Shown in pieces: positions 1 to 54,888 of a stretch of 64,000 bases of DNA. Within the stretch, counting starts at the first letter, position 1; every line of letters begins with the position of its first letter. Below the pieces are notes generated by a model. The model saw only the letters and a list, made by a program, of their open reading frames with translations. It did no database searches and was not told the DNA's origin. The stretch lies in assembly GCA_951406725.2 (NCBI GenBank), contig OX597840.1, forward strand, positions 22,940,001-23,004,000, in the 5' to 3' direction. The position numbers were made by a program, and so were the translations under genes. This DNA is from Octopus vulgaris (lineage: Eukaryota).

Positions 1-129
1 ACCAAGCAAGTGCGCATGCATGTTTGTGCTTAGGCTTAAGGTCTTAGCCTGGGGCCACAACATGGATGACTTAAGGCATTCGTGCACTTCATCAGCCCTG
101 CTCCCTTTAGGAATGACAGGAAGGATTTG
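1..129 (-). pseudogene. Helitron Pif1-like helicase fragment
   Basis: Minus-strand translation QILPVIPKGSRADEVHECLKSSMLWPQAKTLSLSTNMHAHLLG matches the Pif1/Helitron GDFRQILPV...CLKSS.LW...L..NMR segment; continues beyond the window start. Confidence 0.8.
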
Positions 130-449
130 CACACTTTTTTCTGAGTCTTTTCTTCCTCTTCCCACCTCACTCCTAACCTTATCGTCTTTTCTTTCTTTTT
201 AGCCAATTTCATGTGATTTTTCTGAAAGAATAGAAAAAATAATATAAGACATAGAATATGTTTAAAAGGTAGATATTCAAAAGTGCAAATTTATAACACT
301 TCTATTTTGCTAAATTGTAGAAGTATTAAACTTATCCAATCTCATCATTTTTGAGAAGTTTCTATCATAGAGTGGACACATGTATTATAATAACAACTCC
401 TAGACACACCAATGAAGCAGGAAAATCTGTGACAATGTATTAATGTGAA

Positions 450-820
450 CACAAAGAGTGGTAGAACCAACTGCAGTACAGAAAAGGACATTATATGAAT
501 TTCATTGTGAACCCCCGGGGATGTCATGACTGTAAGCTTTGATGGGGAGTCATGTGTATTGGCCAGCAATGGACCGGGACATTCAAAATTTGGTAAAAAT
601 CATGTAGAGATTGTGCATTAGCAGCCAAGGCACCACCAGAGAAATACCAATTGTGGTCTGAGACTATGAGTTTGTGGTCCTGGGTACATATAGACTATGC
701 TTGAGCTACTTGATCATGATTGATAGCCTTACAAAGTGGTTGGAAGGATGTAGGTGCAGTCAACCTACCTTGAAGGCAACTATAACGTTCCTGCACAAAT
801 TCTTTTGCTCAGTACGGTGT
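450..820 (+). pseudogene. Ty3/Gypsy integrase relic (H2C2 + start of catalytic core)
   Basis: Broken frames read ALMGSHVYWPAMDRDIQNLVK-SCRDCALAAKAPP...WVHIDYA...YLIMIDSLTKWLE; stops and frameshifts. Confidence 0.75.
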
Positions 821-995
821 TTGGATCTTTTCCTTTTGAACGGTAGACAATTTCTAGTTAACTAAACACTTTCAAACTTCATATACTGGTAGAATGTGTC
901 AAAATAAAACATTTTTAGGAAATAGGAAATAACCAAAAGTGCAATGAAATGTCTAAAAGAAAACAAACAGAATGAAAGTATTAAAATAACAGCCT

Positions 996-2360
996 GGATC
1001 TTTTCGGTTTGAACGGCAGTTTTTAACATAATTTCTAGGTAACTAAAAAATTTTAAACTTCGTATACTGGTAAAATATGTTTATAGAATATTTTTTTCTC
1101 TTGGCTTTGTTGAGAAAATTCTGTACTTTGAAAGATATTTGTTGTTGTATTTTTCTGCAATTTCAGCCAATCATTGACGTCTATTGAGGTAGAAAACATT
1201 CTGTGCCGTATGAATGTGTCCCTCGTTTAACCCTTTCGTTACCAAACCGCCCAAAGCCGCCCGAATTTACCTATTCATATTTAAATGAGAATATCAGAGC
1301 AAATCTCTTCAGTACATTCGTGAAAACACGTATTATACTTCGTAAACAGTTCAACTGCAGTTTTGTACAATAATCGAAGTGTAATTTTAATTCCGTGAAT
1401 TTTGGGAGATTTTTTTCCGAAATTTGTTCCTATTGTGTTTTCAAAATTTGTAATTCTGACAAAAAATGGATACGAATTTCATTATATCAAGCAGCGAGTC
1501 AGAATTCGAAGGATTTTCTACTGAAGACCTTCATAAATCTAACTCTATGACTGAAAAAAAAAGCACATGGTATTTGATAATGAATTTGATGTTTCATTTT
1601 CCGAAAGTGAAAACAGTGAATCTGAGATCTCCGATAGCGATAAAGAAAACGAATTGGCACCTGAATGGAGTGAAAATTTAAAAACTGTTTCTTTCGGTGA
1701 TTTTTCTGCAGAAACTGGACCAAGCCACAGACTTTCCCAGAAGGGTAAAAAAAGCCTTAGGCTATTTCTATTTACTTTTTCGAATGAGCCTATTTGAAAT
1801 CATTACAGCGAAAACGAACCGTTACGCTAAACGTAAACAAAACGAAAGAAAGGATAGTTTGTTATTTCCCACAACCTTAAATGAAATTAAGACTATTTTG
1901 CCATAAATATTATTATGGGTATCAGAAAGTTACCCAGAATAACAAATTCTATCGTAAAATTTTGTTGTATACCCAATTGAATATTAGCTAATATTTTCTA
2001 TAGCGATGTTTGAACAAAATTTTAATAATTTTATATTTTGTGGAATTTACCTGTATCTACCTGCAAATAGAGTCACTTTGTGACAAAAATTATAGTATAG
2101 AATTGGTTGAGAATATTTCATTAAATTATCTTCCAAAAATCAGATTAATATATCGATAAATAAAAAAGTTATAGTTGTTTAATGAAACCAGACTAAATTT
2201 ATGATTACGTTAGAAATTAATTGAAACACCTAAGGGGTGTATTTTGGTCAGAAATATAGTAACGAAAGGGTTAAGAAACAGATTGGGTTTATTTACATTT
2301 GTGAAGAAAAAAAAGATACCCTTCCCCTAACCCTGAAACAGACTGAAATGCAATAGATCG
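996..2360 (+). mobile_element. Non-autonomous interspersed repeat (TGGATCTTTTCGGTTTGAACGGCAG family), split by a piggyBac insertion
   Basis: Related copies at 822-915, 20290-20515 (-) and 45197-45400; absent from the paralogous intron (53131-53170). Confidence 0.6.
1231..2270 (+). mobile_element. Internally deleted piggyBac transposon
   Basis: TTAA TSDs at 1227-1230 and 2271-2274; TIR CCCTTTCGTTAC/GTAACGAAAGGG; frameshifted ORFs 1466-1950 with acidic N-terminus and YFYLLF..FEIITAKTNRYA..TTLNEIK..IIMGIRKLP piggyBac signature. Confidence 0.9.
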
Positions 2361-2391
2361 TATTTGTTTAGTGAAATTCTTTCTTTTAACT

Positions 2392-2601
2392 GGTATTACT
2401 TAATTAGAGTTGTCCAGGTGCGCGCACTCACGCATCCGCTCTAGCTAGTCGTGACTAGTCGATCCTACAACGACTACGTAGTATAAAGTAAATAAAACAC
2501 AAAAACACAAAGTAAATAAAACAAAAACACAAAGTAAGGATCGACTAGCTAGGGCGGATACGCGAGTGCGCGCACCGGGAGCACCCTTCTTAAGTAGTAC
2601 C
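2392..2601. mobile_element. MITE with 9-bp TSD (MULE/Mutator-type)
   Basis: TIR GGTA(T/C)TACTTAA...TTAAGTAGTACC; TSD CTTTTAACT at 2383-2391 and 2602-2610; empty site visible in the paralog near 53104-53140; relatives at 3807-4030 and 28268-28657. Confidence 0.85.
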
Positions 2602-2688
2602 CTTTTAACTTAGTCAACACATCGAAACAATCAGATATATGGCATGACACATATATAATAGAAATATTTATATAAATAAAATACTTAC

Positions 2689-3000
2689 ACAATAAATATA
2701 TATATATATATATGTATATATGTAGAGTGAGTTAACGAGGAAGGTGTGAGAAGAATATATTGTAGTGAAAACTGAATTCAGAGTGGACAAAGAGAGCTTC
2801 AAGAGAATTTCTTCCTCATTACAACAAACGTTAATTAATATTTTTCAGGTCCACATAATCAAAAATGCTGCATCTGTTTCTTTAGAAATTTAATTACCAA
2901 TCGTGTATATATTTGATTGGGTTTTCTCTTAAATATCAGTTGTCAAGTGGAACCGATCAAGCAATAAAAATGCGTAAGAAACAGGAGCAAGAAAGTCTTT
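2689..3000 (-). promoter_or_regulatory. ZNF-unit non-coding exon 1 (minus copy), donor GTAAGT at 2688-2683; matching acceptor at 223-222
   Basis: Reverse complement aligns with 14570-14850, 38100-38355 and 52790-53041; acceptor TTCTATTCTTTCAG|AAAAATCACATG is the same as in the ZNF units. Confidence 0.6.
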
Positions 3001-3053
3001 TACGAATTTATGTGAAGCACCTCAGCTCTTAATTAAAAACGGATATTAGAAAT

Positions 3054-3341
3054 AGAGTGATTTCCCCTCGTCTGTTAATTGCTAAATCTTTCCAATTCTG
3101 TTTCCTTGTTTAAGAGAGAACCCAATTGAATATACACACGTTTGATAATTAACTGTGTAAAGAAATCCGTACAGTATTCTTTATTAAATTCATCTGTAAA
3201 ATATAAATCAACGTTTGCTATTAAAAATCTAGATATTCTCTTGAAGCTGTCATTGTCCACTCAGACTCCAGACCTCACTGCTTCATCATATTCTCACATT
3301 TTCCTCGGTGACTCTCTATATATATATACGTATATTTCTAT
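3054..3341 (+). promoter_or_regulatory. ZNF-unit head motif AGAGTGATTTCCCCTCG plus non-coding exon 1, donor GTGAGT at 3342
   Basis: Homologous to the other unit heads; intron homology continues to 5240, where it is cut by a Helitron fragment. Confidence 0.6.
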
Positions 3342-4882
3342 GTGAGTATTATATTTATTTAAGCATTTCTATTGTATATGTGTCATTTTACGTACATTTG
3401 CTTATTCTGACGTGTTGAATAATTAAATTAAAAGAATCTCACCAAACAAAGCCGAAATTATATGAAAGTAAGGCTGACATTCGAATAATGTTGTTTTATT
3501 TTCTTTTAGATATTCCGTTCCAGTTTTGGTTATTTCTTACATTGCTTTGAGTCAGTGCAATACCTTGTTTACACAACATTTTCCTTTATTTTTGGCTTGT
3601 AAATCTAAGAATTTATTTAAATGCAGGGAAGTTCCGATGTAATTTCTGAAAAATAGAGAATATAGATTGTGCACTCGAAATACTGAAACGAAAAGAGGAT
3701 GGTTCACTGAAGAAATGGAACGGCATTTGTGTGAAACATTAAAAGAAATGTCTTTATTTTTGCTAGTTCTTCTCCGTCATTACAATTTACAACTTATATA
3801 TATATGGGTACTACTAGCAAAGACTGGACCCGGTGTGCGCTAGCTAGTCGTAAGTAGTTGATCCTACAACGACTTGCGCGTATGCATATGAGTTGATTTT
3901 ACAGAATAAAATAAAAGAAATTTTTAAAGAAAATAAATAAATTATTTCTTAGAACAATGGATTTGATTTTTTTACACAAATCAAATAAAATGTGTGTGAT
4001 ATATTCTTTTACTAGTTTTTAGTTTTTGGACAGCATCCATGGTAGGTACATCATTCAGGTATATATATATATATATTTATGTATATATATGTATATATAT
4101 AAAACAGAACTGGGAGAAGAAGAAGAAACAGAACGAAGCGACGAATCGAAACGAACCCGACACGAAGCGCTGTCAGACAATAGTGTAATAAATAAAATAT
4201 ATGCATACATACAAACATATATGTAAGTACCTACATCTACATGTATATATACATGCATATATAAAAATATATATATACGAGAGTACAAGACACCACAACT
4301 AGACGTAGAACTCAACAAGAAACGAAAACGGAAAAGCCATTTTTTTACAATGGAAAAACCGAGACGTGGAACTGGACGAGAAACGAAGACGGGAAAAACA
4401 TTTTTTTACAACAGAAAAACAAAGTACAGGACATCCTACACAAGGAAAAATCCCCAATCATCAGCTGTCGCTAGTTAGACTCAAGCGTGTTTCGAAGGCA
4501 AGACAGGACACGACTCGTCAAAACTAGGCCTTCCTGCCTGAGAATTAAAATAAAATTTTCTCACAGAGGGGTAAAACGAGCACGAAAAAAATGTAACACA
4601 AACAGGACAGTAACAATAAAAATGCACAATAAAATACAAGATAAAAATGCATGTACAGGAAAATACAAAACGAGAAATAAAAAGAAAATACAATACAGAA
4701 ATCAAAATAAACAAGAAAACAAACGAAAAGGCCTTTTTTCTGGCTATAGACGGAGGATGTCCTGGCAGCGCATGGAATCTTGTGTGTGTGTATGTATATG
4801 TATATATGTTTTTTTTTTTTTGGTTTGTTTTGATGTTTTCTTGTTTGTTTATTTACCCTAAACCCCTACCACCACATGAATT

Positions 4883-4954
4883 CCGGCCTGAGATTCGAAC
4901 CCGCGATCCCACGACCGCGAGTCGGCTGCTCTAACCACTAGGCCATGTGCCTCC
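4883..4954 (-). mobile_element. tRNA-derived SINE head
   Basis: GGAGGCACATGGCCTAGTGGTTAGAGC (A box) ... GGGTTCGAATCTC (B box); no complete cloverleaf. Confidence 0.75.
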
Positions 4955-5240
4955 ACATCTGTGTTACTAAACAAAGCTGTGTTGACAAGATAGAACTCCA
5001 AGGTGAAAACATTGGTTATCTAGGCCATTAACATCTATATTGGTGTGTGTGAGAGAGAGAAAGAGCGTGTGTGTCACAGATTTAATGTCCAGGAGTTGCT
5101 ATTATAATTATTGAATCTGCTCGTAATTTATTAACTTTTGGGTAAGTTTATTAGTTTGAATGCAGGTTTACTTCTACAATCCATTAAAACAGAAATGTCG
5201 TAAATTTGCACTTTTGAATATCTACCTTTTAAACATATTC

Positions 5241-5833
5241 CTTGACGCCCCACTTTATTGAGGCTACCATTGTAACAGGGTGTAGGAGGAGTGAAAATGT
5301 TTTCATTTCAACGATGCAGCTTTATCCCCCACGGTCAGACATGCCGGTCAAGTTCTGCAGATTGCAATGTCCGGTGAGACCATGCTTCACCATGTCCATC
5401 AACAAATCCCAAGGCCAAACACCATCGATTTGGGGTTTTCCATTCAATGAGGATAAATAATTGATAAACTAATTCCTTATAGGATTTCTGCTAAAATTGG
5501 CTACACCCAATTTTCAACCATAACTTTTACCAATTTTGACATATTTTACTCAAACTCGATGCCAGCACTACTTAGGACTCATGGGATCTTTGAATGCTTT
5601 AAGTTCTTAAAAAAAAAAAAAAAAACCATTAGTAGAAGTAATCGATAAACTGATTCCTTATGGTATTTCCCAATCAAATTCCCTGCGATCCCACTTTCAG
5701 CCAAACTTTTCGCCAATTTCAGCAGATTTCGCTCAAATGTTATGTCATTGTCACTTATTTTGGTTTGAAATAAATCACTTCATCTCTTAATGATCCGAAT
5801 TTAATACCGAGCAACGCCGGGTTATACTGCTAC
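5241..5833 (+). mobile_element. Helitron 3' fragment (Pif1 helicase C-terminus + terminal hairpin)
   Basis: ORF 5242-5460 FIEATIVTGC...PVKFCRLQCPVRPCFTMSINKSQGQT is the Pif1 C-terminal motif; hairpin ACCGAGCAACGCCGGGT 5806-5822 followed by CTAC|T (degenerate CTAG|T). Confidence 0.8.
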
Positions 5834-5886
5834 TCAAATATATATCAGGAAAGCCGTTAATATTTCAAGACAAGAGTTAGTTCCCC

Positions 5887-8800
5887 TTGGATGTGATGCA
5901 CCAAAGTAAACAGTCCTTCAGGTTGGCAGCTGTCTACGCCCCGAACGAGAATAGACAGTCGGGTTTCTTTCGGAACCTGGAGCCCTTTCTGGCGACGTCG
6001 AAAACAGTAATCCTAGTAGGGGACTTTAACACTGTCCTTGAAGCGCACATCGACAATGTTGGCTCGACCAATAGGAAGGGGAACCCTAGCCTCAGGGGTC
6101 TACTAGAGAGTTTTGATCTAGTGGACCGTTACCGACTGGATGAGCCGAGCGTTCCACAGTGGACGTGGAGTAACAACGACGGCTCATACAGATCGTATCT
6201 AGACAGGATATTGATTAAGAAAAGAGATAAGGATATATTCAGTTGTCCACAATTTCACATTGTGCCTTACTCAGATCACAAGTTGGTGACGTGTGAGGTA
6301 CAATTAGATAAGTGTCATAGACAAGGACCCGGGTACTGGAAGCTGAACAAGGCTAATTTGAATTGTGAAGACTTCCGTACCCGAATTAAGGTGTTAGTTC
6401 AGAGGGCATTGTGCGGCACCATCATTAACAATAGATGGTGGCACGCCCTCAAAAGAGCCATTCGTTTAGAGTCCGTTAGATTTAGCAATCAGCTAAGGAT
6501 AGATAGGGCTAGTCTAGAGGGCGATTTAGTTAAGAATCTAGACGAGGCAATGGAAGCTGGCTCTGCATCCGGAGTGTTGGCGGCAAGGGCGGTATTGTAC
6601 CGTCACCTTGACTCCAAACACGAAGGTTGCAGAGTCAGAGCAAAACTGCGCGTCGGGAAACGAGAAGGTATTAACGTAGCCGGATGGGCCCGTCGTGTGG
6701 AGAGTAAGAGAGGCAATAGAGCCTCAATAAAATCTTTGACTGACGAACAGGGACAAAAGATCTATGGACAGGAGGAGATGCAAAAGTTCCTTCACCAGCA
6801 TTTCGCGCGCGTGTTCGGGGGTGGTGGTCCGCTGGATCGGGGGAGTGCCTTAAGGGACTTCCTGGCCGGCGGGCCGCGGCTCGCGGGGCGTGAGGCGGAG
6901 TGCTGTGAGGGAGCGATCACTCCCGCGGAAATAAGGGAAGTGCTGGCCGGGTGCGCCGGGGAGAAGTCGCCGGGGCTGGATGGTCTGCCCTACGAGTTTT
7001 ACCAAAATATGCCGGACTTGTTCGGGGGAATACTGGCAGGCGTCTACACGAACTGGCAGCAGAATGGGAGAATTCCCAGCTCTGTAAGCCGGGGAGTGGT
7101 GACGCTAATCCAGAAAGACCCGAGCAAGGGGGATATAATTAGTAACTACAGGCCCATAACTCTACTTAACGTAGAGTTAAAGATTTTGGCCAAGGTGTTA
7201 GCAAAAAGGTTGACGGTTGTCGTGGAGAAACTTGTAGGGAGAGCACAGACATGTGCAATTCCAGGCAGGTCGATCCAGGACAACCTTCACCTTATACGCT
7301 ACACCCTAGATAGGGTGGGTAAAGTATCCGGCAAAGGCGGGGTAATGGTCCACTTGGACCAAAGTAAAGCCTTCGATAGGGTAGACCATGGGTACCTGGC
7401 GGCGGTCCTCGAAGCGACCGGACTGGGTCCCGAATTCCGCGGGTGGATCTCCGCTATGTACAGCGGCATCAAGTCCACCGTCCAGATAAACGGTTACCTA
7501 ACAGAACCGTTTTCGATCGAGTGTTCAGTGCGTCAGGGGTGCCCCTTGTCACCACTTTTGTACGTATTGGCTCTTGAGCCACTACTGCGAAGGTTGGAGA
7601 GGCTGGGGAGTAACTCAGATGAAATCGGAGGCGGGAGGTCGGTCACTGCTTATGCGGATGACATCACCCTCATCGTGTCCAAAGAGGCCCAACTACCTTG
7701 TGTAGAGGAGGCTATCAGAGGATACGAGGCGGTGGCAGGAGCAAAAGTTAACAGGGACAAATCGGTCGGCTTGCGCCTCGGCACCTGGAGGAACAAGCCG
7801 ATATCGTTCAGTGTTGTGGGACACTGGACGGATGGCCCTGTTAAGTTGCTGGGAGTTTGGTTTGGACCGGACTCCCAAACGGAGAAGAACTGGAGCGAGG
7901 TGACGGGCAAGGTGGAGGCCATAGTACGGACCTGGTCCGGAAGGTCTCTGTCCTTGAAAGGAAGGGCGGAGGTGGTCCAGATGTTCATTGCATCTGTAAT
8001 CACCTATCGCCTGACCGTCGTCCCTTGCCCCGACTCATGGCTTAACAAGTTGGAACGAATCCTTTTTCGCTTTTTGTGGAAAGGAGGAAAGCCACTTGTG
8101 AGACGCTCCGTGTGCTGTCAAGAACCGCTAAAGGGTGGGTTAGGGATGCCTTGGTTGATGATGCGCAGACATGCGTTGAGACTAAGACATCTCTGGCACC
8201 ACCTGGAAGGTGATAAGGTGTGGAGTCCGCTGGCAGAGGGATTTTTCCCGAGACCGGCCTCCTTAGTTAATTTTAAACCCGGTTACATCAGAAGATGCAA
8301 TCTGACTCCATGGCAAAAGGAGTGCCGACAGGCACTCACGCTAATCCACAAGACGGGCAAGGCCGGCTGCGGAAATACCACCTCGGTATTGTATAGAGGG
8401 CTGGTAGAAGGTAAAAACGATGACGTCCTAGGAGGGGCTCTGGGGTTTGATGAAGACCAGCTTGCCAATCTGTTTAAGAAAACGTTCAGGTCGGGGTATT
8501 TGGATAATTTCCAAAGATCCCTGGCCTGGCAGTGCTACAGGAATGCTTTACCTGTTCGCGAGAAGTTATCGCGGCACGGAGTTCCAGTGCCACCGACATG
8601 TCCAAGATGCGGGTTGAGCGATGAAACCGTTCAGCACGCTTTTGTTCACTGTCGGAAGTTGAACGACTTGATAAGTTACGCAGAACACGTGTTATCGCAT
8701 CTGGGACGAGTACAGCTGTCGGCTGAGTCTATGATTAAGATGATACCGCCAACTGGACTCTCGAAGGAAGGTGAGGCATGTTTTCACTGCACGGTTGCAG

Positions 8801-9000
8801 TAGTAAAGGAATGCATGTGGAGAACGAGAATGGAAGGAGCCGCGACAGGGTCCTTTATCTCCGGGCCCGGCTTGCTCACGTACTTCAGATATCATCTGAG
8901 AAGCAAGATGGGACTGGAGAGGAGGACCTTGCCGCGGGGAGTGTATGAGAAAAGATGGAAAGAAGTGGAAAGAAAGGTGGGTGTGAGAAGCCCAGCTTGA
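5887..9000 (+). CDS. Tx1-like ORF2 (truncated APE endonuclease + reverse transcriptase + C-terminal CCHC), uninterrupted 1037 aa
   Basis: VYAPN, LVGDFN, SYLDRI, SDHKLV, GPGYWKLN, KSPGLDGLP, NYRPITLLN, DQSKAFDRVDH, RQGCPLSP, YADD, CPRC...ETVQHAFVHC. Confidence 0.92.
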   Translation: MDVMHQSKQSFRLAAVYAPNENRQSGFFRNLEPFLATSKTVILVGDFNTVLEAHIDNVGSTNRKGNPSLRGLLESFDLVDRYRLDEPSVPQWTWSNNDGSYRSYLDRILIKKRDKDIFSCPQFHIVPYSDHKLVTCEVQLDKCHRQGPGYWKLNKANLNCEDFRTRIKVLVQRALCGTIINNRWWHALKRAIRLESVRFSNQLRIDRASLEGDLVKNLDEAMEAGSASGVLAARAVLYRHLDSKHEGCRVRAKLRVGKREGINVAGWARRVESKRGNRASIKSLTDEQGQKIYGQEEMQKFLHQHFARVFGGGGPLDRGSALRDFLAGGPRLAGREAECCEGAITPAEIREVLAGCAGEKSPGLDGLPYEFYQNMPDLFGGILAGVYTNWQQNGRIPSSVSRGVVTLIQKDPSKGDIISNYRPITLLNVELKILAKVLAKRLTVVVEKLVGRAQTCAIPGRSIQDNLHLIRYTLDRVGKVSGKGGVMVHLDQSKAFDRVDHGYLAAVLEATGLGPEFRGWISAMYSGIKSTVQINGYLTEPFSIECSVRQGCPLSPLLYVLALEPLLRRLERLGSNSDEIGGGRSVTAYADDITLIVSKEAQLPCVEEAIRGYEAVAGAKVNRDKSVGLRLGTWRNKPISFSVVGHWTDGPVKLLGVWFGPDSQTEKNWSEVTGKVEAIVRTWSGRSLSLKGRAEVVQMFIASVITYRLTVVPCPDSWLNKLERILFRFLWKGGKPLVRRSVCCQEPLKGGLGMPWLMMRRHALRLRHLWHHLEGDKVWSPLAEGFFPRPASLVNFKPGYIRRCNLTPWQKECRQALTLIHKTGKAGCGNTTSVLYRGLVEGKNDDVLGGALGFDEDQLANLFKKTFRSGYLDNFQRSLAWQCYRNALPVREKLSRHGVPVPPTCPRCGLSDETVQHAFVHCRKLNDLISYAEHVLSHLGRVQLSAESMIKMIPPTGLSKEGEACFHCTVAVVKECMWRTRMEGAATGSFISGPGLLTYFRYHLRSKMGLERRTLPRGVYEKRWKEVERKVGVRSPA

Positions 9001-9239
9001 CCATGGAGGAGAGAGAGGAAGTGGAAGCTGCAGGGCCTCATCAATTGCCGGGGTGTAAAAGCTCCAGTAAAACCACAAAGGTCATCTACGAGTGTTTGTT
9101 ATACTAGTTATGCAAAAATTTTTATTTTATAACGAATCCAAACGGAAATTTTAATCGAAATCTCTTAAATGTTTTTTGTATGTATGTCCTGTAATTGTCC
9201 CCTCTATGTATTGATTTTTATAATCTTAATAAAGAAATA
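5890..9239 (+). mobile_element. Tx1/L1-clade non-LTR retrotransposon copy 1, 5'-truncated
   Basis: Bounded by the direct repeat AAGAGTTAGTTCCCCTTG (5872-5889, 9240-9257); starts inside the APE domain; 3'UTR ends AATAAAGAAAT with no poly(A). Confidence 0.92.
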
Positions 9240-9451
9240 AAGAGTTAGTTCCCCTTGAACTTTCATCTGCGTTTTGAGAAAGTTGCTGCCTTTTGTTGAG
9301 AGAGTTCGAATTTTTGCTCATCGTTGTTTGTGTTAATTGTTATTTGAACAGTGCCCGTTGTGTAACGGTAATTTTCGCCCTACGGGGCAGAAAATTCCGT
9401 ATTTAAAATTGTTATTACCTTCGAGGTAATTTTTGAAACATTTTTTGAGAA

Positions 9452-10873
9452 ATGGATTTCGACTTGGCGTCGAAGAATGATTTTCCCGCGATGGGAACAA
9501 GTGAATTAAAGGACACTGAAGTAACAAAACAGTCTTTTTCGGCCGCGGTAGGCGGAACCATGATGGACGTTGAATTCAAGATCGAACAACTGTTCGAATT
9601 TAGGAACTTGGTGAAAATGGAAGGAAACGAAATCAAACTTGTACCGCCGCAAGCGAAGGTACAAGAAATAAAGGAAAAAACAGTTATATACAAAGTGTAT
9701 AGCTACAAAGAAAAGAAAATTATGGACGTCAGAAACGAAATGGTCGAAAAGTGCTTGTCCCCGGTGTGGGACAAAATTCGCCATGTCGTTCGAGGTGCTC
9801 GCAGCGCTACTGTTGAAGCACATTTTGACTCGGCTGAGGTAGCAAGAGAGGTGTCATCATTGACCCTGAAAAATGATGATATCATGCTGCTACCCTCGTA
9901 TATGGGAAAAAGAACAGCTAAACTGCTGGTAGAGGACATACCGAGAGGGTATGATATAATGTGGGTAGCAGCGGCGGTCCTGCACAATGTAGAGCGGGAA
10001 GTTTCGATTCTGCAGATGAGAAGGAAAGAGGAGGTACGCTGGAACTCCTCGTTCAGGCAGAAAACAAGATATTGGAGAACCTGCCCGATAGGATATTTAA
10101 CGAAGATGGAACGTCCATGAGAGTGTCAGTGGAGGGGCGCAGACCTAGATGTTTTAAATGTGGCGAGAAGGGTCACGTCCGCTCGAACTGCTTAAAAAAA
10201 AAAGAAAACCAACGAAGCCCCTCCTCAAAGTGCTTCAAACACTGAAGGGGAGAAGGCGGAAAAAGATAACAAGACGACGACAAGCAAAGAAACAGAAACG
10301 GAGGATTGTATCGTACAAATGGATTACACACAGGTGACACACAAAAGAAAAAAAGACAACACCCTGGACTCCCCTCCCCAAACAAGGAAAAAATCAGCAA
10401 GCACCGCAGACATACACACAAAGCAAATTCCCCAGCCCTACCCCCATGGCACTGTATTCATTGGGAAACAGTTCGCCAAACCCCTCCCCATAAAACAAGA
10501 TGTGAAAAAGTCTTTAAAAAAAAATGATAAGATCATTGCTTTTGATGAAAAAAACGAAAGGGTATATAAATACTATAAATTTTCAAAATTTAAACTATTT
10601 AGCAAGGCTACAGACATAAAAGCAACCACTCGCTTCGCAAAAATAAAGGAAGACGAGTGGAAGGAGGAAATATTACAAGAACATCTAAAGAATAGACTGA
10701 TTAGAGATGTAACAAAAGAAGTACTGGAGGGTAAACTTGTTATAACCCCGGCAACCACACCTACCCAGAGCCCGGTGGCAACGCCGGTTAAGAGCCCTGC
10801 AGCTACTACCACAAGGGAGGAAGAAGGGGAAGCGGGCAGATTTAAACTGTCATGCTCTCTTTCTCAACCGTAA
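9452..10873 (+). pseudogene. Tx1 ORF1 (gag-like, CCHC zinc knuckle), frameshifted
   Basis: ORF pieces 9452-10120, 9961-10245 (CFKCGEKGHVRSNC) and 10319-10873. Confidence 0.8.
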
Positions 10874-10900
10874 GTTCATTTATTTTTTCTCTCACCGAAA

Positions 10901-13900
10901 ATGGCTAAGCTGGGTTGTGTGAATGTACGTGGAATGGGGACGAAATGGAAACAAATTTGTTTCCTGAACGACCTCACGACACATGGAGTAGACATAGCTA
11001 TTGCAACCGAGTCCAAGATGAACGAGGCCCAAGCGTTCTCGCCTCTTCTAAATGGGTTCGAGAAATTTATTTCTCCTAGCCGAGGAAGAGGCAGAGGCGT
11101 GGCAGTCCTTATCAGGAAGAGCTTGGACTTGCAGGTAAGTACTGTCTTTCTGGACCCAGAAGGCAGGCTGGTTGTTCTGGATGTGACCCACGTAAGTAAA
11201 CAGTCCTTCAGGTTGGTAGTTGTCTACGCTCCGAACGAGGGTAGACAGACGGGTTTTTTTCGGAACCTGGAGCCCTTTTTAGCGACGTCGAAAACGGTAG
11301 TCTTAGTAGGGGACTTTAACACTGTCCTTGAAGCGCGGGTCGACAGTGTTGGCTCAACCAATAGGAAGGGGGAACCCTAGCCTCAAGGGTCTACTAGAGA
11401 GCTTTGATCTAGTGGACCGTTACCGACTGGATGAGCCGAGCGTTCCACAGTGGACGTGGAGTAACAACGACGGCTCACACAGATCGTATTTAGATAGGAT
11501 ATTTATTAAGAAAAGAGATAAGGATACGTTTAGTTGTCCACAGTTTCACATTGTGCCTTACACGGATCACAAATTTGTGACGTGTAGGATGCAATTAGAC
11601 AAGTGTCATAGACAGGGACCCGGGTACTGGAAGCTGAACAAGGCTATTTTGAATTGTGAAGACTTCCGTACCCGGATTAAGGTGTTAGTACAGAGGGCAT
11701 TGTGTGGCACCATCATTAACGATAGATGGTGGCACTCCCTCAAAAGAGCCATTCGTTCAGAGTCCATTAGATTTAGCAATCAGCTAAGGTCAGATAGGTC
11801 TAGGATAGAGGACGATTTAGTTAAGAATCTAAACGAGGCAATGGAAGCTGGCTCTGCATCCGGAGTGATGGCGGCAAGGACGGTATTGTACCGTCACCTT
11901 AACTCCAAACACGAAGGTTGCAGAGTCAGAGCTAAGCTACGCGCTGCCGGATGGGCCCGTCGAGTGGAGAGTCAGAGAGGTAACAAAGCCTCGATCAAGT
12001 CTTTAACTGACGAACAGGGACAAAAGATCTATGGACAGGAGGAGATGCAAAAGTTTCTTCACCAGCATTTCGCCCGCGTGTTCGGGGGTGGTGTGGGGCC
12101 GGAGCGGGGGAGGACCTTAAAGGACTTCCTGGCCGGCGGACCGCGGCTCTCGGGGCGTGAGGTGGAGTGCTGTGAAGAAGCGATCACTCCCGCGGAGATA
12201 GAGGGGATACTGGCCGGATGCGCCGGGGAGAAGTCGCCGGGGTTGGATGGGCTGCCCTACGAGTTTTACCAAAGTATGCCGGACTTGTTCGGGGGAATAT
12301 TGGCAGGCGTCTACACGAACTGGCAGCAGAATGGGAGAATTCCCAGTTCTGTAAGCCGGGGTGTGGTGACGCTAATCCAGAAAAAACCCGAGCAAGGGGG
12401 ATAACATTAGTAACTATAGGCCCATAACTCTACTTAATGTAGAGTTAAAGATTTTGGCCAAGGTGTTGGCAAAAAGGTTGACGGTTGTCGTGGAGAAACT
12501 TGTAGGGAGAGCACAGACATGTGCAATTCCAGGCAGGTCGATCCAGGACAATCTTCACCTTATACGCTACACCTTAGATAGGGTGGGTAAATTAACCGGC
12601 AAGGGCGGGGTAATGGTCCATTTAGACCAAAGTAAAGCGTTCGATAGGGTAGACCATGAGTACCTGGCGACGGTCCTCGAAGCGGCTGGACTGGGCCCTG
12701 AATTTCGCGGGTGGATCTCCGCTATGTATAGCGGCATCAAGTCCACCGTCCAGATAAACGGTTACCTAACGGAACCGTTTTCGATCGAACGTTCAGTTCG
12801 TCAAGGGTGCCCCTTGTCACCACTTTTGTACGTGTTGGCTCTTGAGCCATTGCTGCGAAAGTTGGAGAGGCTGGGAAGTAACTCGGATGAGATCGGAGGT
12901 GGGAGGACGGTTACTGCTTATGCGGATGACGTCACCCTATTCGTGTCCAATGAGGCCCACCTACCTTGTGTGGAAGAGGCTATCAGAGGATACGAGGCGG
13001 TGGCAGGAGCAAAGGTTAACAGGACAAGTCGGTTGGCTTGCGCCTCGGCACCTGGAGGAGCAAGTCGATATCGTCCAGTGTCGTGGGACACTGGACGGAT
13101 GGCCCTGTTAAGTTGCTAGGAGTTTGGTTTGGGCCAGACTCCCAAACGGAGAGGAACTGGAGTGAGGTGACGAGCAAGGTGGAGGCCATAGTACGGACCT
13201 GGTCCGGAAGGTTTCTGTCCTTGAAAGGAAGGGTGGAGGTGGTACAGATGTTCATTGCATCTGTAATCACTTACCGCCTGACCGTTGTCCCTTGCCCCGA
13301 TTCATGGCTTAGCAAGTTGGAGCGAATCCTTTTCCGCTTTTTGTGGAAGGGAGGAAAGCCACTTGTGAGGCGCTCCGTTTGCTGCCAGGAACCGTTAAAG
13401 GGTGGGTTAGGAATGCCTTGGTTGATGATGCGCAGACATGCGTTGAGGCTGAAGCATCTCTGGCACCACCTGGAGGATGATAAGGTGTGGAGTCCGCTGG
13501 CAGGGGAATTTTTCCCGAGACCGGCCTCCTTAGTGAATTTTAAACCCGGTCGCATCAAAAGATGGAAACTGACTTTATGGCAAAAGGAGTGCCGACAGGC
13601 ACTCACGCTGATCCACAAGGCGGGCAAGGCCGGCTGCGGAAATACCACCTCGGTATTTTATAGAAGGCTGGTAGAGGCAAAGAACGACGACGTCCTAGGA
13701 GGGGCTCTGGGGTTTGACGAAGACCAGCTTACCAACATGTTTAAAAAGACCTTCAGGACGGGGTATTTGGATAATTTCCAAAGATCCCTGGCCTGGCAGT
13801 GCTATAGGAATGCTTTACCTGTTCGCGAGAAGTTATCGCGGCACGGAATTTCAGTGCCACCGATGTGTCCAAGGTGCGAGTTGGACGATGAAACCGTCCA

Positions 13901-14267
13901 GCACGCTTTTGTACACTGTCGGAAGTTGTCCGACTTGATAAGTTACGCAGAACACGTGTTATCGCATCTGGGACGAGTACAGCTGTCGGCTGAGTCTATG
14001 ATTAAGATGATACCGCCAACTGGACTCTCGAAGGAAGGTGAGGCATGTTTTCACTGCACGGTTGCAGTAGTAAAAGAATGCATGTGGCGAACAAGAATGG
14101 AAGGAGTCGCGATAGGATCCTTTGTCTCGGGCCCCGGCTTGCTCACTTACTTCAGATATCATCTGAAGAGCAAAATGGGGCTGGAAAAGAGGATCTTACC
14201 ACGGGGTGTGTATGAGAAAAGATGGAAGGAAGTGGAAGAAAAGGTGGGTGTCAGAAACCCAGCTTAA
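10901..14267 (+). pseudogene. Tx1 ORF2 (APE + RT), three frameshifts
   Basis: ORF pieces 10901-11380, 11328-12404, 12454-13119 and 13038-14267 are collinear with, and highly similar to, the copy-1 ORF2; N-terminus LGCVNVRGM...IAIATESK is the APE start. Confidence 0.9.
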
Positions 14268-14524
14268 CTATGGAGGGAGGAGAGGAAACAAAAGCTGCGG
14301 GGCCTTATAAATTGCCGGGGTTTAAAACTTCGGTAAGATCGAAAGTTTATGAAATGTTATAATATTCTATTGGTCATGTAAAGGACAATTTACAGACGAA
14401 TTTTTATAATGAATAATCCAAATGTTATGGAAAATTTTTAATCGAACCTCTTAACTGTTTTTTGCATGTATGTCCAGTATTTGTCCTTCTATGTAACGAT
14501 TGTATAATCGTAATAAAGAAATTG

Positions 14525-14844
14525 GAGTTAGTTCCCTTTGTTGATCGTAAAAACTCTTCCTCATTAAGTGTATTTCTTGTTCTTGTTTCTCACGCACCTT
14601 CATTGTTTGATCAGTTCCACTTGACAACTGATATTTAAGAGAAAACCCAATCAAATATATACAAATGATTGGTAATTAAGTGTCCAAAGAAACAGATACA
14701 GCATTTACGATTATGTGGACCTGAAAAATATTAATTAACGTTTGTTGTAGAAACCTAGAAATTCTCTTGAAGCTGTCGTTGTCCACTCTGACTCCAGTTC
14801 TCACATCTTCCTCCTTCACTCTTTCTCTCCATATCTATTACTAT
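14525..14844 (+). promoter_or_regulatory. ZNF-unit head motif + non-coding exon 1 of the 17.2k gene (donor GTAAGT 14845; acceptor AG 16731-16732)
   Basis: Conserved among units; ACTAT|GTAAGT donor and TTCTATTCTTTCAG acceptor recur in the paralogs. Confidence 0.6.
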
Positions 14845-15362
14845 GTAAGTATTTATTTAAACATTTCTATTATATATGTGTCGTATTATGTACATTTATT
14901 TGTTTCGATGTGTTGAGAAAGTTAAAAGGAAAAAAAATCTCACTAAAACGAAATTATACGAAAGGCTGTAATTTTAATACTTTCATTGTGTTGTCGTTTT
15001 CTTTTAGACATTTCATTGCACTTTTGGTTATTTTCTAAATTATTTGTAAAAACGTCGGATCAATCCCTTGTTTAGATAACATTTATCTTTCTTTCTAACG
15101 TAAATTCGACAATTTCGTTAAATGCGGGAAAATTACGATGTAATTAGTAAGAAATGGGGAATGTATAAAAATACGAGTGTGCACTTGAAATACTGAAACG
15201 AAAAGTAAATATCGTATCGAGAGGAAATGGCTTTTATTTGAGACATAGGAAGTCTTTATTTCTGGTGGTTCTTCTGCATCATTACAACTTACAATTAATA
15301 TCTGGGGTTTGTTTTGTTTTTTCCGGAATTTTCAGAAAATCTTTGCAAATACGTATTCGCAT

Positions 15363-15778
15363 TATACGCATTGCGAAGAAAGAAAAGGATAACTTGCATA
15401 ATTAATTGAAAACAACATTAATAAAAGTGTGCAATTCTGCTTTAAACATTATATAGCTCCTTAAAAGTTTTTTCGCATTTTCGTGTGGAATTATCGGAAA
15501 ATTTTTCCAAATTTGTGACCTATATTATGAAAAAAATTGTTTTTTTCAATTTTTCCCATTTTTTAAAAAGGTTCTACAGTGGCAATTTTTTAAAAAATGG
15601 GAAACAATTTTTTCATAATGTAGGTCACAAATTTGGAGAATTTTCCGAAAATTCCACAGAAAAATGGGAAAAGAAATTTAAGGAACTATATAATGTTTAA
15701 AGCAGAATTGCACCCTTTTTAAATGTTATTTTCAATTAATTATGCAAGTTATCCTTTTCTTTCTTCGTAATGCGTATA
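15363..15778. repeat. Imperfect palindrome (~200-bp arms) in ZNF intron
   Basis: TATACGCATTGCGAAGAAAGAAAAGGATAACTTGC... vs ...GCAAGTTATCCTTTTCTTTCTTCGTAATGCGTATA. Confidence 0.85.
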
Positions 15779-16483
15779 TATTTAATATGAATATATTTTT
15801 CACTCATCCAGATAAACAATATTTCGTTTTGAAGCAACAAGGAAGAGAAACATTAATTATAATGTGTAAGAATTTATAATTAAAAGGAAAAAACAAGAAT
15901 GGTTAAATTTTAATACTATCTGCATAACAATGAAAAGAAATTATAGTTTTTCCGTAAAATAAGGATAGACTTCATTGAAGCCTCTGCCATTTGCCCCATG
16001 GAGAAGGATTGTCACCAATTTCATCAACCAACAATTTTTCTTAACATCAAAAATTCCCCACAAGAGATTTTGATGCTGCAAGTCAGACATCAATATTATT
16101 TACTGACTTTTATGCATCTTTTATGCTCAACAAAATGTTAACATTAAGCTAACCACATATATATATTTGTATATTTACGCATATACAGAAAGAGGCAGAG
16201 GAGGAGTGATGTCTATGTTATAAAACAAACCTGTGTTGATACAATAGAACACTGAGGTGAAAACATCAGATATCTACTGTCATTGACATGTATATTGGTG
16301 TGTGTGTGTGTCTAGGACAGACACAAAGTCCAGGAGGTGTTATTACGATGGATGTGTCTGTGATATAAACCTCTTGAAAATAGAGAGATGGGATAAATTT
16401 AATTGTTCAGATAAAGGATCAATTCTACAATTTATGAAAAGAGAAATGTTGTAAATTTGCACTTTTGAATATCTGCCTTTTAA

Positions 16484-16688
16484 CCCTTTAGTGTTTAAAC
16501 CGGCCATTCTACATGTTTTATATTTGAACTAACCATATCTAGCCTCTCACACCCAACCTACATTGACATTCTAAAAATAAACATTCACATCATTGAAACC
16601 TCAAAGCTATAAGATAATGCATGATTAATTCAAAACAATTTGAGTGAAAAAGTATTACATTTAACAGAGTAATCTGAACATGAAAGGG
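16484..16688. mobile_element. piggyBac-type MITE in ZNF intron
   Basis: TTAA|CCCTTT...AAAGGG|TTAA; paralogs show the empty site GCCTTTTAAACAT (e.g. near 40240, 54415). Confidence 0.85.
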
Positions 16689-17135
16689 TTAAACATGCTT
16701 TATGTCTTATATTATTATTTCTATTCTTTCAGAAAAATCACATGAAATTGGCTAAAAAGTATTTTTTACTTTTAAAGAATCATCAATATGTATCATGTTT
16801 GAAAGACTTTGCAAAGATATTCTACAAACGTATAATCCTGCTTCTATAAAACATTGCTGAATTACAGTAAAATATTTCCTCTGAGAGAGAAAGCATTTCT
16901 TTACTTCTGTGTCTGAAATGTGCAGAAGATAATCTTCTCTTTTACATATACTTTGATAGATTTCCAAAGAGTATTTGCGACATTTTTAAATATTGGCATT
17001 GATCACGTTCAGAAGAAATATAAGAGAAGTGATATTGGTTTGGAATAAACTATAAAAGCAAAAAGAAGCAAAATATCCATATATTTTGGTGAGAGAAGAA
17101 ATATTATTGAAAAGTTGTTGATCTGTACAACTTGA

Positions 17136-17948
<813 letters not shown>

Positions 17949-22129: not shown

Positions 22130-23735
22130 TGTAGTAGTGTTGACAGTCATGCTTCACAATTTTTGACTGTAGCAAGATGATTGATTCTGTGCTATAAATA
22201 CAGCTGGGTAGGATCCAGAGTGCTAGGTTTTGCAAACTGTATTCTGACCAATCAGTGTGTAGTATCACTCAATTACTTAAGCTGATTGGTTTAGACATCA
22301 CGCTTTGTTGGACATGTCAAGAGTCCTGTATCTTGACCCTGGCCAAAGCAGCAATTGTTGGGTTATTTTTAGAAATGTTGTAAATATCCTTTGTCAGAGA
22401 TTTTTATATTTTTCTATTTCAATTGTCATCATCATCATTGTCAGCACCTTAATTATTGTTGCTAGTGGTGATGGTGGTGGCAATAGAACTTCTAACCCTA
22501 AATAAGATAATTTTCCTGCTATCTTCAGCTTGATCACCTTTAGTATTGTTGTTGTTGTTAGTGGTCATGGTCGTAGCAGTGGAAGTAATAACTCTAAGTA
22601 TTATTATTATTGCTTATTTAGCTTGGGTTCGAATTTATCAATAAAATTCTTTTCTCTGATTCTCCTCTCGATTTCACTTGGGCTGTGTAATTTGTAGAAC
22701 GGAAATATTATATACATTTTCCGGCCACATGTTGCTAGGTTACTCAAGGGTATCTGACGGACCTCTGGGTCTCTAATCTGTTGCCGGTGTACACGTGAGC
22801 GTTCTAATAGTGCGTTTCCCGTCTGACCTACATATATTTCTTCTCAATTTGGGCATTTGATGCAGTAAATTAAATTTCTGCTTTTGCAGTTCATATTCGC
22901 GTTTGTGAATATTTTCCCGGTTTTTGTGTTTATATATTGACCGGTATGTATGAATTGGCATGTGCCACATCGGCTATCATTGCGTGAATGTTTGGTCTTT
23001 GTTGCTAAGGTCAAATTTTGCCTTTGTTAGTAATGTTTTCAAGTTTTTAGGCTGTCTTTTACTAAGCACCATAGCTCGATCCGTGATTATGTCTTTTAAT
23101 TCATTACTTTGGGCAATGATTGGTAGGTTTGCTTTGGCAATGTTGAAGATATTCTGGTGACATGGGTTGTGTGTCACTATGAATGGTATGACTTGTTCTT
23201 GTTTGCCTCTTCCTTGGGTTGTCCTAAGTTGTTGTATGGGTATTTTTATAGCCCGCTGTATGCCATTTTCTATAAGTAGAGATGGGTATTTTTGTTTGAG
23301 CAAAAATTCTCTTAGTTCTATTAGGCGTTTGTTCCTGATATTTGCATCTTCTATAATGGTACAAATTCTTCTGGCTAGGCAGTATGGCATGTTGCGCTTT
23401 GTATGTGGTGGATGGCACGACTTAAAATTTAGGTATTGATGTGTGTCTGTGTGTTTATAGTATATATCTGTGGTGTTGGTGGTGTCTTTTTTAATTACCA
23501 TTATATCTAGGAATGGTAATTTGGTACTACTCATCTCCTTTGTAAATTGGAGAGATGGGTGTAGGTTGTTCAGGAGGATATTGAACTCTTCCAGAGTATT
23601 TAGAGATTCTGTCCAGATTATGAAGCAGTCGTCTAGGTATCTCTTCCATGCTTTTCAATATACTTTCTAAATCCAGTGCCATAGTTTACCTCCACCTCTT
23701 GGTAGAGTTGTTGTTCTAAGTATCCCATTACAGAG
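22085..23735 (-). mobile_element. Penelope-like element, 3' part (RT C-terminus, degenerate GIY-YIG region, pLTR)
   Basis: YLDDCFIIW...LHPSLQFTKE..LPFLDIMV...YYKHTDTHQYLNFKSCHPPHTK (ORF 22977-23534); hammerhead at the distal end. Confidence 0.85.
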
Positions 23736-32647: not shown

Positions 32648-32660
32648 AGCAGCGTCAGTA

Positions 32661-33590
32661 TAGGGTGATCAGTTTTACCCATTCAGAAAACGGGATTTTG
32701 TGCGTGACACCACATGAAGTGAACTGAAAACAAACGAAATATTTACGGGATTCTTCTTTACGTACGCCATATGAACACTCGTATTAACTTGTCCAGAAAG
32801 GTCTGAGTGTTGTTTTGAAGCTAAATTTTTCAACGCTTCATTGAATACACCAGAAACGTAACAGAGTTAAAACTTTGGCGTTGCTAGAAGTGGTAGTACA
32901 TCTCGTCTTTGTTCCTCACAAAAATTCCGTTTATCTTTCATTCTGGTTACCCTTTAATGATATTTGAAATGGATAACCAAAAATTTTATATTCACTTTGT
33001 AATATTTTTCTTAAAAATAAATAAATGTGAAAATGCTGCAAACACTTTCAAAAACATTTGTAAAGTTTGTGATGATGCTGCAGGTGAATCAACTGTTCGA
33101 AGCTGGTTTGCAAAACTTGAAACTGGAGAGTTTAGCTTGGAAAACAACAGTCGCAGTGGAAGATCTTCAAAATTGGATGTGGATGTTTTGAAGGCAAAAA
33201 TCGAAGAAAACTCCAATATCAAGACTAGAGATCTTGCAGAGGAGTTGAAAGTTCTTCAAAGTATGGCTGATGAACACCTTGTGAAGCTAGGATACATTTC
33301 TTGCTATAATGTAATGGGTCCCTCACAAACTCTCAGAAAAGAATTGCTCGGAGCAGTATTCTGTTTGTGATATGTTTTTGAAATGGAATGAAAGCCTGGC
33401 TTTTTTTAAACGACTTGTGACTGGAGATGAAAAGTGAAAGAATTTTGGAAACGTTGATAACTTAATGCATTTTATGCATAAATTCATATACTTTATAAAT
33501 GCTTTCATAGACTTAATACACAGCAATCATAAAATATTCACTCTTATTTTTCACTTCTCCTATAAACAGAAAAAACTTTGCATGGTCACA
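32661..33590 (+). mobile_element. Mariner (Mos1/SETMAR-like) transposase relic
   Basis: TVRSWFAKLETGEFSLENNSRSGRS HTH region; RLVTGDEK followed by a stop; 3' boundary approximate. Confidence 0.8.
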
Positions 33591-38063: not shown

Positions 38064-38349
38064 AGAGTTAATTCTTCCTAATTTTGTTGCTCCGTATGCA
38101 TGTGTATTGCTTGCTCTGTTCCGACTTTACAACTGATATTTAAGAGAAAATCTAATTAAATAGACACGTGATTGGTAATTAAGTGTCTAAAGAAACAGAT
38201 GCAGCATTTTTTTTATTATGTTGACCTGTTAAATATTAATATTCGTCGTAAAAATTCTCTTGAAGCTGTCACTGTCCACTCTAACTTTTCACTCATTCAA
38301 CATATTCTCATATTTTCATCGTTGACTCTCTCTGAATATATATTACTAT
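38064..38349 (+). promoter_or_regulatory. ZNF-unit head motif variant AGAGTTAATTCTTCCT + exon 1 of the 40.8k gene (donor 38350; acceptor 40286-40287)
   Basis: Homology to the other unit heads; no Tx1 insertion here. Confidence 0.6.
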
Positions 38350-52674: not shown

Positions 52675-52743
52675 CTGTTTCTTGCATGTAGGTCCTGTAT
52701 TTGTCCTTCTATGTAACGATTGTATAATCATAATAAAGAAATA
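52675..52743 (+). mobile_element. 3'-terminal remnant of the Tx1 element at the same target
   Basis: Nearly identical to 14455-14523; followed by AAGAGTTAGTTCCCCTTG 52744-52761. Confidence 0.85.
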
Positions 52744-53035
52744 AAGAGTTAGTTCCCCTTGTCAAAACTCTTCCTCATTAATTGTATTTCTTGTTCTTGT
52801 TTCTCACGCACCTTCATTGTTTGATCAGTTCCACTTTACGACTGATATTTAAGAGAAAATCCAATCAAATATATACAAATGATTCGTAATTAACTGTCTA
52901 AAGAAACAAATACTACATTTATGATTATGTGGACCTGCGAAATACGAAGTAACGTTCTTTGGAAAAAGGAAGAAATTCTCTTGAAGCTGTCAGTGTCCGC
53001 TCTGACTCGTTGACTCTCTTTATATCAATTACTAT
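52744..53035 (+). promoter_or_regulatory. ZNF-unit head motif + exon 1 of the 54.9k gene (donor 53036; acceptor 54458-54459)
   Basis: Homology to 14525-14850. Confidence 0.6.
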
Positions 53036-54180: not shown

Positions 54181-54888
54181 CCTTCAGATGAAAACATCTG
54201 ATATCTAGTGCCATTGACATGTATATTGGTATGTGTGTGTGTCTAGGACAGACTTAATGTCCAGGAGGTGTTATTATAATACATGTGTCTACTCCCTGAT
54301 ATAAACTACTTGAAAATAGAGAGATGGGATAAGTTTAGTAGTTCAGATAAAGGATTGCTTCTATAATTTATGAAAACAGAAATGTCATAAATTTGCACTT
54401 TTGAATATCTGCCTTTTAAACATACTTTATGTCTTATATTATTTTTTCTATTCTTTCAGAAAATCATATGAAATTGGCTAAAAAGTATTTTTTACTTTTA
54501 AAGAATCATCAATATGTATCATGTTTGAAAGACTCTGCAAAGATATTCTACAAACGTATAATCCTGCTTCTAGAAAACATTGCTGAATTACAGTAAAATA
54601 TTTCCTCTGAGAGAGAAAGCATTTCTTTACTTCTGTGTCTGAAATGTGCAAGAGATAATTTCCTCTTTTAAATATACTTTGATGGATTTACAAAGAGTAT
54701 TTGCAGCACTTCTAAATATTGGCAATGATCACATTTAGAAGAAATATAAGAGAAGTGATATTTGTTTGGAATCAGCTGTAAAAGCGAAAAGAAGAAAAAT
54801 ATCCATAAATTTTGGTGAGAGGAGAAATAGTATTGAAAAGTTGTTGATCTGTACAACTTGAAGGATTGATTATATTTTTCTTGAAGAG

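Follow-up and report, generated by a model that had tools for sequence, protein, structure and literature searches.

A LINE at the heads of octopus zinc-finger genes probably selects transcription start sites by position

In the known target-specific long interspersed elements (LINEs), the endonuclease reads one repeated sequence. TRE5-A of Dictyostelium inserts in a position-specific manner next to the transcription start of genes transcribed by RNA polymerase III (Pol III), HeT-A carries strings of upstream-derived 5' tags, and HAL1-type elements are partners containing only the first open reading frame (ORF1); a literature search did not confirm the HeT-A tags. In LINEs of the Tx1 clade, target choice is ascribed mainly to the endonuclease, and an element counts as target-specific when more than 20% of its flanks lie in one sequence type (Kojima, 2015; PMC4494074). 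Annealing of the element RNA to the target has been described for SART1Bm and R1Bm (PMC7265360) and co-transcription for R2 (PMC4494074). The long terminal repeat (LTR) elements Ty3 and DGLT-A insert at tRNA-gene starts, Ty3 integrase binding TBP/Brf1 (PMC6101501), and the Mu and P elements show "precision targeting" of RNA polymerase II (Pol II) start sites with a peak within 50 bp (PMC7337890). Here, a LINE was analyzed in a stretch of 64,000 nucleotides from Octopus vulgaris (contig OX597840.1; C27:22940001-23004000 of the 2.8-Gb genome, C27 being the chromosome label in our census). This stretch, termed the window, contains tandem C2H2 zinc-finger (ZNF) genes (open frames, Pfam). The element, an L1-group (Tx1-like) LINE, lies at a conserved host motif at the head of ZNF exon 1, in sense orientation and with a duplication of about 17 bp, and it is rather probable that the site is chosen as a Pol II start about 29-31 bp behind a TATA box and not through reading of an 18-mer by the endonuclease.

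Two copies of the LINE, A and B, which are 89.6% identical, were found at one ZNF head in the following arrangement.

5839..5844, + strand: TATA-like box (TATATA) of the host ZNF head, 34 bp 5' of the motif's AGAG; position kept in the empty heads L012-L015, L205, L206 and L211
5872..5889, + strand: upstream host 17/18-mer, putative transcription-start element and 5' target-site duplication of copy A
5890..9238, + strand: copy A, LINE 5'-truncated inside the endonuclease, of a subfamily other than that of copy B; ORF2 open to 9000
9240..9257, + strand: middle motif, serving both as the 3' duplication of copy A and as the 5' flank of copy B
9258..14522, + strand: copy B, full-length two-ORF LINE; ORF1 from ATG 9452, ORF2 10901-14267, both frameshifted
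14523..14540, + strand: downstream motif variant with three mismatches, heading a different paralog type (L216/L217-like)
14524..14844, + strand: ZNF non-coding exon 1, donor GT at 14845; predicted 5' end
16733..17948, + strand: ZNF coding exon, acceptor AG at 16731-16732; open C2H2 frame 17136-17948

Copy A ends with AATAAAGAAAT and has no poly(A); its single open frame (5881-9000, 1039 aa) contains the Pfam domains Exo_endo_phos, RVT_1 and zf-RVT. A hairpin resembling a Helitron 3' end (by its known pattern) is situated at 5807-5833, directly 5' of the TATA box, and is present in one whole class of ZNF heads.

The ORF2 domains of the family (Exo_endo_phos, RVT_1 and zf-RVT by Pfam) are those of the L1 group (APE-type, i.e., with an apurinic/apyrimidinic endonuclease), and the best solved relative of ORF2 is human L1 ORF2p (E=2e-58), R2 being far weaker. 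A separate ORF1 of 472-478 aa was present in 19 of 70 full-length copies, and both 5' truncations and target-site duplications occur. ORF1 matched zf-CCHC above cut-off in L141 and L085, and copy B also contains the knuckle near 10150-10191. An ORF1 with a CCHC zinc knuckle is a feature of the Tx1 clade. By its domains and best structural relative the element is thus an L1-group LINE, and its architecture makes Tx1-clade membership likely. No named Tx1 reference was present among the 120 listed homologs and 8 clusters examined, the closest named ORF2 relative among these 120 coming from Argonauta hians (64%). Most young full-length copies are frameshifted in ORF2, which was open in none of 13 copies at ZNF heads; many of these frameshifts may lie in homopolymers and could be assembly errors.

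The exact 17-mer of the motif was found 24 times in the genome, always on C27 between 22.8 and 26.3 Mb within one ZNF cluster, and the reversed control gave 0 matches. The flanks of these matches were 10 empty sites, 6 5' junctions, 7 3' junctions and 1 tandem junction. Because they include empty sites and 5' junctions, the motif is host DNA that is duplicated upon insertion, as the original prediction had claimed; a motif constituting the element's own tail was ruled out by the 10 exact empty sites and the 6 5' junctions. Searching with a conserved exon-1 24-mer revealed 55 ZNF heads (49 on C27 and 6 on C2), and of the 36 that lack a LINE 3' end, one of which contains an ORF1-only element, 33 carried the motif with at most two mismatches. 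Twenty of the 55 heads were occupied: 16 by the LINE directly, three by an ORF1-only element with a LINE upstream and one (L227) by an ORF1-only element alone. The distance from the motif to the exon-1 donor was 321 nt in the unit of copy B and 290 nt at the empty head L008, in agreement with the 290-320 nt predicted earlier.

In the main types of ZNF head, TATA-like boxes are located 31-34 bp 5' of the motif. Transcription was assessed from contigs of runs guessed to be RNA; the joint 14844->16734 between intron donor and acceptor of the ZNF gene was present in four of four such runs from four studies. At L008, three RNA-like runs (three studies) gave a contig depth of 130-890 over exon 1, 18-42 some 30-50 nt downstream of the motif start and 0 over the motif itself and the adjacent upstream bases, and a DNA-like run carried on across the motif at a depth of 570-850. 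This drop hints, though weakly, at a transcription start within the motif or close to it. Insertion of the LINE separates the TATA box from exon 1 by 5.3 kb and an AATAAA; finger ORFs are open behind occupied heads (270 aa at the window locus; 410, 552 and 550 aa in L155-L157). A small-RNA gene comprising the motif was dropped as a candidate, no Rfam match being found in window positions 1-17000 or in 35 other loci; in the same sequences there was no match of the snRNA, tRNA or 5S type targeted by the Tx1 elements Keno, Dewa and Mutsu. In L208, L214, L218, L224 and L226, empty ZNF heads are fused to unrelated upstream DNA exactly at the motif, which looks like a recurrent breakpoint.

The 3' ends of the LINE were counted by its exact terminal 20-mer, which occurred 103 times; 100 of the 103 were examined, 3 of them in the window. 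Twenty ends were situated at ZNF heads, 21 in a Helitron-like repeat, 11 in a hammerhead repeat, 8, 6 and 3 at three heads of RTE-type LINEs and 31 elsewhere, and in 21 of the 100 another copy followed directly 3' (tandem). The names of these targets are provisional: "RTE" denotes one ORF with endonuclease and reverse transcriptase (RT) and familiar motifs, "Helitron-like" a characteristic 3' hairpin and CTAG, and "Penelope-like", applied to the hammerhead target, a match to RF00163 (E=3e-4; 32.2 bits, below the 34-bit cut-off) together with familiar motifs, the ORF behind this target in L199 having no Pfam, PDB or pairwise support. A target-site duplication could be defined at 59 of 77 5' junctions (22 array-internal ends were skipped and one lacked an element body); it measured about 17 bp at ZNF heads, where the LINE takes the sense orientation and a fixed position, and 10-26 bp at 19 unique sites. 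Sixteen of the 21 ends at least 97% identical to copy B lay at ZNF heads, so that by the criterion of more than 20% (PMC4494074) the subfamily of copy B is target-specific; all ends together amount to 20 of 100. The preference for ZNF heads claimed in the original prediction consequently holds, with independent insertions, for the subfamily of copy B and does not extend to the whole family: the outcome named in advance as its refutation, unrelated flanks of copies elsewhere, applies in part, since 80 of the 100 3' ends lie outside ZNF heads.

Several target loci showed further peculiarities. At L082/L160 (C5:29.18 Mb) the LINE forms a head-to-tail array of six copies, and the host copy contains an extra stretch of 48 nt with TATATAA at -29 which is absent from other Helitron-like targets. 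The RTE-type LINEs L193-L195 have tandem TATA-containing 5' monomers of about 480 bp and an apparent 5' intron, and the L195 ORF gave a PHD-like match within the RT region. L107 (C9:58.89 Mb) lacks an element body: a 24-base element tail is joined there to 11 bases of the ZNF motif, possibly as a read-through product.

The position of the insertions relative to TATA boxes was compared between these targets. TATAWA began 26-33 bp upstream of the 3' anchor in seven of ten multicopy target types (background 2.7% per search interval) and in four of the 19 unique sites (background 1.7%, p=3e-4), with a peak at -29, and on the minus strand it was found in this interval at 0 of 19 unique sites and 0 of 10 multicopy types. 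At two of the unique sites with TATA the inserted copy is truncated, which argues against an account by survival of expressed copies. In L142 the LINE is inserted 28-30 bp behind a nearer TATAAA, at a second AGAGTTA copy and not at the canonical motif. L158 (C9:48.06-48.07 Mb), a copy of a second ORF1-only family, lies about 28 bp behind TATAAA with a B-type LINE inserted just upstream; among only three unique non-repeat sites with a duplication in the ORF1-only family, one had a clear TATA box, one an ambiguous one and one none. At part of the sites, those forming the TATA peak at -29, the distance to a core-promoter element is thus fixed regardless of sequence, and insertion is likely directed to transcription start sites by position and not by one DNA word.

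Traces of earlier targets were observed at 5' ends. Four of 70 full-length copies carried another site's duplicate as a 5' tag: L094 has the whole RTEa duplicate though sited elsewhere, L096 has the RTEb duplicate though sited in an RTEa site, and L079 and L122 have RTEb remnants. The tags of L094 and L096 begin at the first or second base of the duplicate, which fits an RNA beginning at the first bases of the duplicate. By eye, L113 has an L093-type 5' tag. The ORF1-only copy L158 starts with a stretch of ZNF exon 1 of about 85 nt. Where a copy occupies a unique site, the host sequence agrees in its first bases with the flank of the nearest relatives; the mean run was 3.9 bases, against 2.1+-0.3 after shuffling (0/5000). 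Such 5' tags would be hidden in insertions from one paralog into another, as at ZNF heads.

We propose that the element may be transcribed from a captured host promoter with its start in the upstream duplicate, so that its RNA would begin with start-site sequence and terminate in a few bases of read-through. These bases could pair with the nicked target and return a subfamily to paralogs of its source site and to its own duplicates, generating tandem arrays. A candidate tether to TBP/TFIID or to open start-site DNA would bring the particle to the site, and recombination between copies in different paralogs could swap ZNF promoters. The complete scheme, in which a LINE tethered to the Pol II pre-initiation complex cuts the start site, takes the promoter, re-programs its target through RNA flank bases and shuffles ZNF promoters and exons in an expanding cluster, is put forward tentatively.

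Several observations weigh against targeting of start sites by position. TATAWA was missing from the interval at 15 of the 19 unique sites, CpG density was not raised at unique sites (p=0.44), and the Helitron-like target (21 ends) lacks TATA at most copies. The multicopy types are related to each other (four ZNF variants, three RTE heads), so that seven of ten overstates the case, and the interval of -33 to -26, although it is the textbook spacing, was set after the flanks had been seen. Counting by the exact terminal 20-mer misses older copies. (GT)n tracts are not start sites, yet they too receive insertions of ORF1-only relatives. The evidence for the start comes from contigs guessed to be RNA, and in one X6 contig (depth 35) 43 bases upstream of the motif remain unaligned. 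Finally, 5' tags are clear in only four of the 70 full-length copies, and in these 70 the ZNF motif was seen as a 5' tag on no autonomous copy.

The same data can be read in another way: homology of the RNA flank alone would set the target, nicks would be fairly unselective, and the TATA spacing would arise because only start-site copies were expressed and founded subfamilies. The microhomology to the flanks of relatives, the tandem arrays, the TATA-less Helitron-like and (GT)n targets and the unique sites without TATAWA are in line with this explanation; however, unique unrelated sites still show TATA at -29, including the two with truncated copies unable to found subfamilies, and different subfamilies converge on the same heads, which makes it rather unlikely.

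According to the original prediction, the endonuclease recognizes the 18-mer and the ZNF family serves as a safe harbour. The high proportion of close relatives of copy B on this target, the strong conservation of the motif, the off-target insertion L058, which has the first seven motif bases in common, and the main role in target choice ascribed to the endonuclease in Tx1 elements (PMC4494074) speak for such a recognition. To evaluate it, the endonucleases were compared (69 segments, 40 of them open, 16 of the open ones aligned). Targets track subfamilies in endonuclease, RT and 3'-end trees among the sequences listed. Only 33 of 225 endonuclease columns varied among the 16 aligned sequences, and near-identical endonucleases were associated with unrelated targets: those of RTEc and Helitron type differ at 3 of 225 residues, as do those of L141 (ZNF head) and of L059-L061, copies with a B-type endonuclease in an RTE head. 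Copy A is about 94-96% identical to subfamilies targeting RTE heads and the Helitron-like repeat, yet it is inserted in the ZNF motif, and at least four lineages have the ZNF site in common. The same site is used by a 1.65-kb ORF1-only element (L155, L156, L157 in reverse complement and L227, all on C27) with a LINE-like tail, a CCHC knuckle, about 30% ORF1 identity and a 15-bp duplication; tandem arrays of its relatives are located at other targets, (GT)n among them. With 80 of 100 ends elsewhere in addition, a family-wide sequence specificity of the endonuclease for the 18-mer is not supported by these comparisons, and recognition of the 18-mer is an improbable explanation. A safe-harbour role is not supported either, the promoter of an occupied head being displaced by 5.3 kb.

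Elements were in most cases more alike than the sequences surrounding them. Median identities of element vs flank were 98.9% vs 93.5% at ZNF sites (10 loci), 98.2% vs 88.0% at hammerhead sites (11 loci) and 98.6% vs 95.3% at Helitron-like sites (10 loci), and the insertions at these three targets are therefore independent; at RTEa sites the order was reversed (95.6% vs 98.1%, 5 loci). An origin of the copies from one or two old insertions through segmental duplication of the cluster, to which the clear duplicates L069-L071, L143/L146, L144/L145 and L147/L148 and the active recombination seen in chimeric flanks would correspond, is largely refuted and very improbable, since elements exceed their flanks in identity in 41 of 45 pairs and the 20 ZNF-head ends go back to about 15 separate events, which differ in truncation point and subfamily and are spread over two chromosomes.

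Recombination has nevertheless affected occupied heads. In four of the eight occupied heads for which both flanks were available, one empty paralog matched on both sides; in the other four, including the window locus, the two flanks matched different paralogs. The upstream flank of the window locus is 96% identical to L013, whose downstream flank is 77% identical, and its downstream flank is 97% identical to L217, whose upstream flank is 61% identical. The element L136 is itself a mosaic, its identity to copy B rising from 84.5% at the 5' end to 99.2% at the 3' end. The window locus and three of the seven others are promoter/exon chimeras, which likely result from recombination between inserted copies. 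Because the flanks of the locus match different paralogs, the motif at 14523 is probably not the duplicate of that at 9240. The view that mismatches in the flanking motifs are RNA-derived bases was abandoned, since chimeric flanks explain the window locus better.

The 18-mer occurs exactly at 5872, 9240 and 52744 in the window (chance expectation 0.04 matches), next to LINE copies as reported earlier; the variant placed there at 14525 exists and starts at 14523. The remaining sites in the window are as follows.

52676..52743, + strand: third LINE copy, a 68-bp 3' remnant without an upstream duplicate, adjoining an inverted copy of 38771-39307
52744..52761, + strand: exact motif heading another ZNF unit, whose coding frame is 54862-56169
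3054..3070, + strand: diverged unoccupied motif; its head seems to lack a coding exon
38064..38079, + strand: empty AGAGTTA motif, the second copy within a variant head; in L142 the second copy of a related head type carries an insertion

The third 3' end therefore does adjoin the 18-mer at 52744, though as a short remnant. Of the two unoccupied variants named by the original prediction, 3054 is a diverged empty motif, whereas 38064 is not at the equivalent position: this head type has lost the canonical motif and contains at 38064 a second AGAGTTA copy further downstream. The ZNF heads at 2601-2994 and 3054-3800 are paired head-to-head. By eye, minus-strand fragments of Penelope-like RT/GIY-YIG ORFs were recognized at 22977-23654 and 30375-32668, and a Ty3/gypsy-like RT/RNase H fragment between near-inverted repeats at 59290-60240 on the minus strand.

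If true, finding of start sites by position together with a target kept by RNA homology would explain how specificity can change quickly, and it would be relevant to tools for RNA-directed gene insertion. As 20 of 55 heads are occupied in a young ZNF subfamily and chimeras account for half of the occupied loci that could be tested, the element would also provide a concrete engine for regulatory turnover in ZNF clusters of the cephalopod type. In the open literature, neither a start-site-targeting LINE nor a link between Tx1 and ZNF genes in octopus was found, Repbase and subscription journals being outside the scope and figures S3-S5 of PMC4494074 possibly listing similar targets.

As far as the excerpts of PMC4494074 and PMC4640811 show, the octopus LINE resembles Tx1L in Tx1D, Keno (U2), Kibi/Koshi and the crocodilian Tx1-Mar and Tx1-9_AMi in being a two-ORF LINE with APE and RT and multicopy targets, in its insertion into transposons, in tandem insertion and in a co-mobilised non-autonomous partner. 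Unlike in these Tx1-clade elements, its target is the head of a protein-coding gene family, and sister subfamilies change targets with almost no change of the endonuclease, the distance to TATA being the constant. Like R1Bm, SART1Bm and R2 (PMC7265360, PMC4494074), it may use flank-derived RNA bases for annealing to the target and depend on a host promoter, whereas those elements have one fixed target and a specific endonuclease. Upstream-derived tags at the 5' end are common to it and HeT-A, and an ORF1-only partner to it and the HAL1-type elements; in comparison with HeT-A, it is non-telomeric and its tags are earlier target sites. With Ty3 and DGLT-A (PMC6101501) it has in common an insertion beside the transcription start that is specific for position and not for sequence; these, however, use Pol III genes and an integrase, whereas the octopus LINE uses Pol II-type TATA promoters and target-primed reverse transcription. 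A strong association with Pol II start sites is likewise found for Mu and P (PMC7337890), which are DNA transposons from a data set containing no LINE, whereas the insertion of the octopus LINE is fixed to a few bases, is in sense orientation and seems to supply the element with a promoter.

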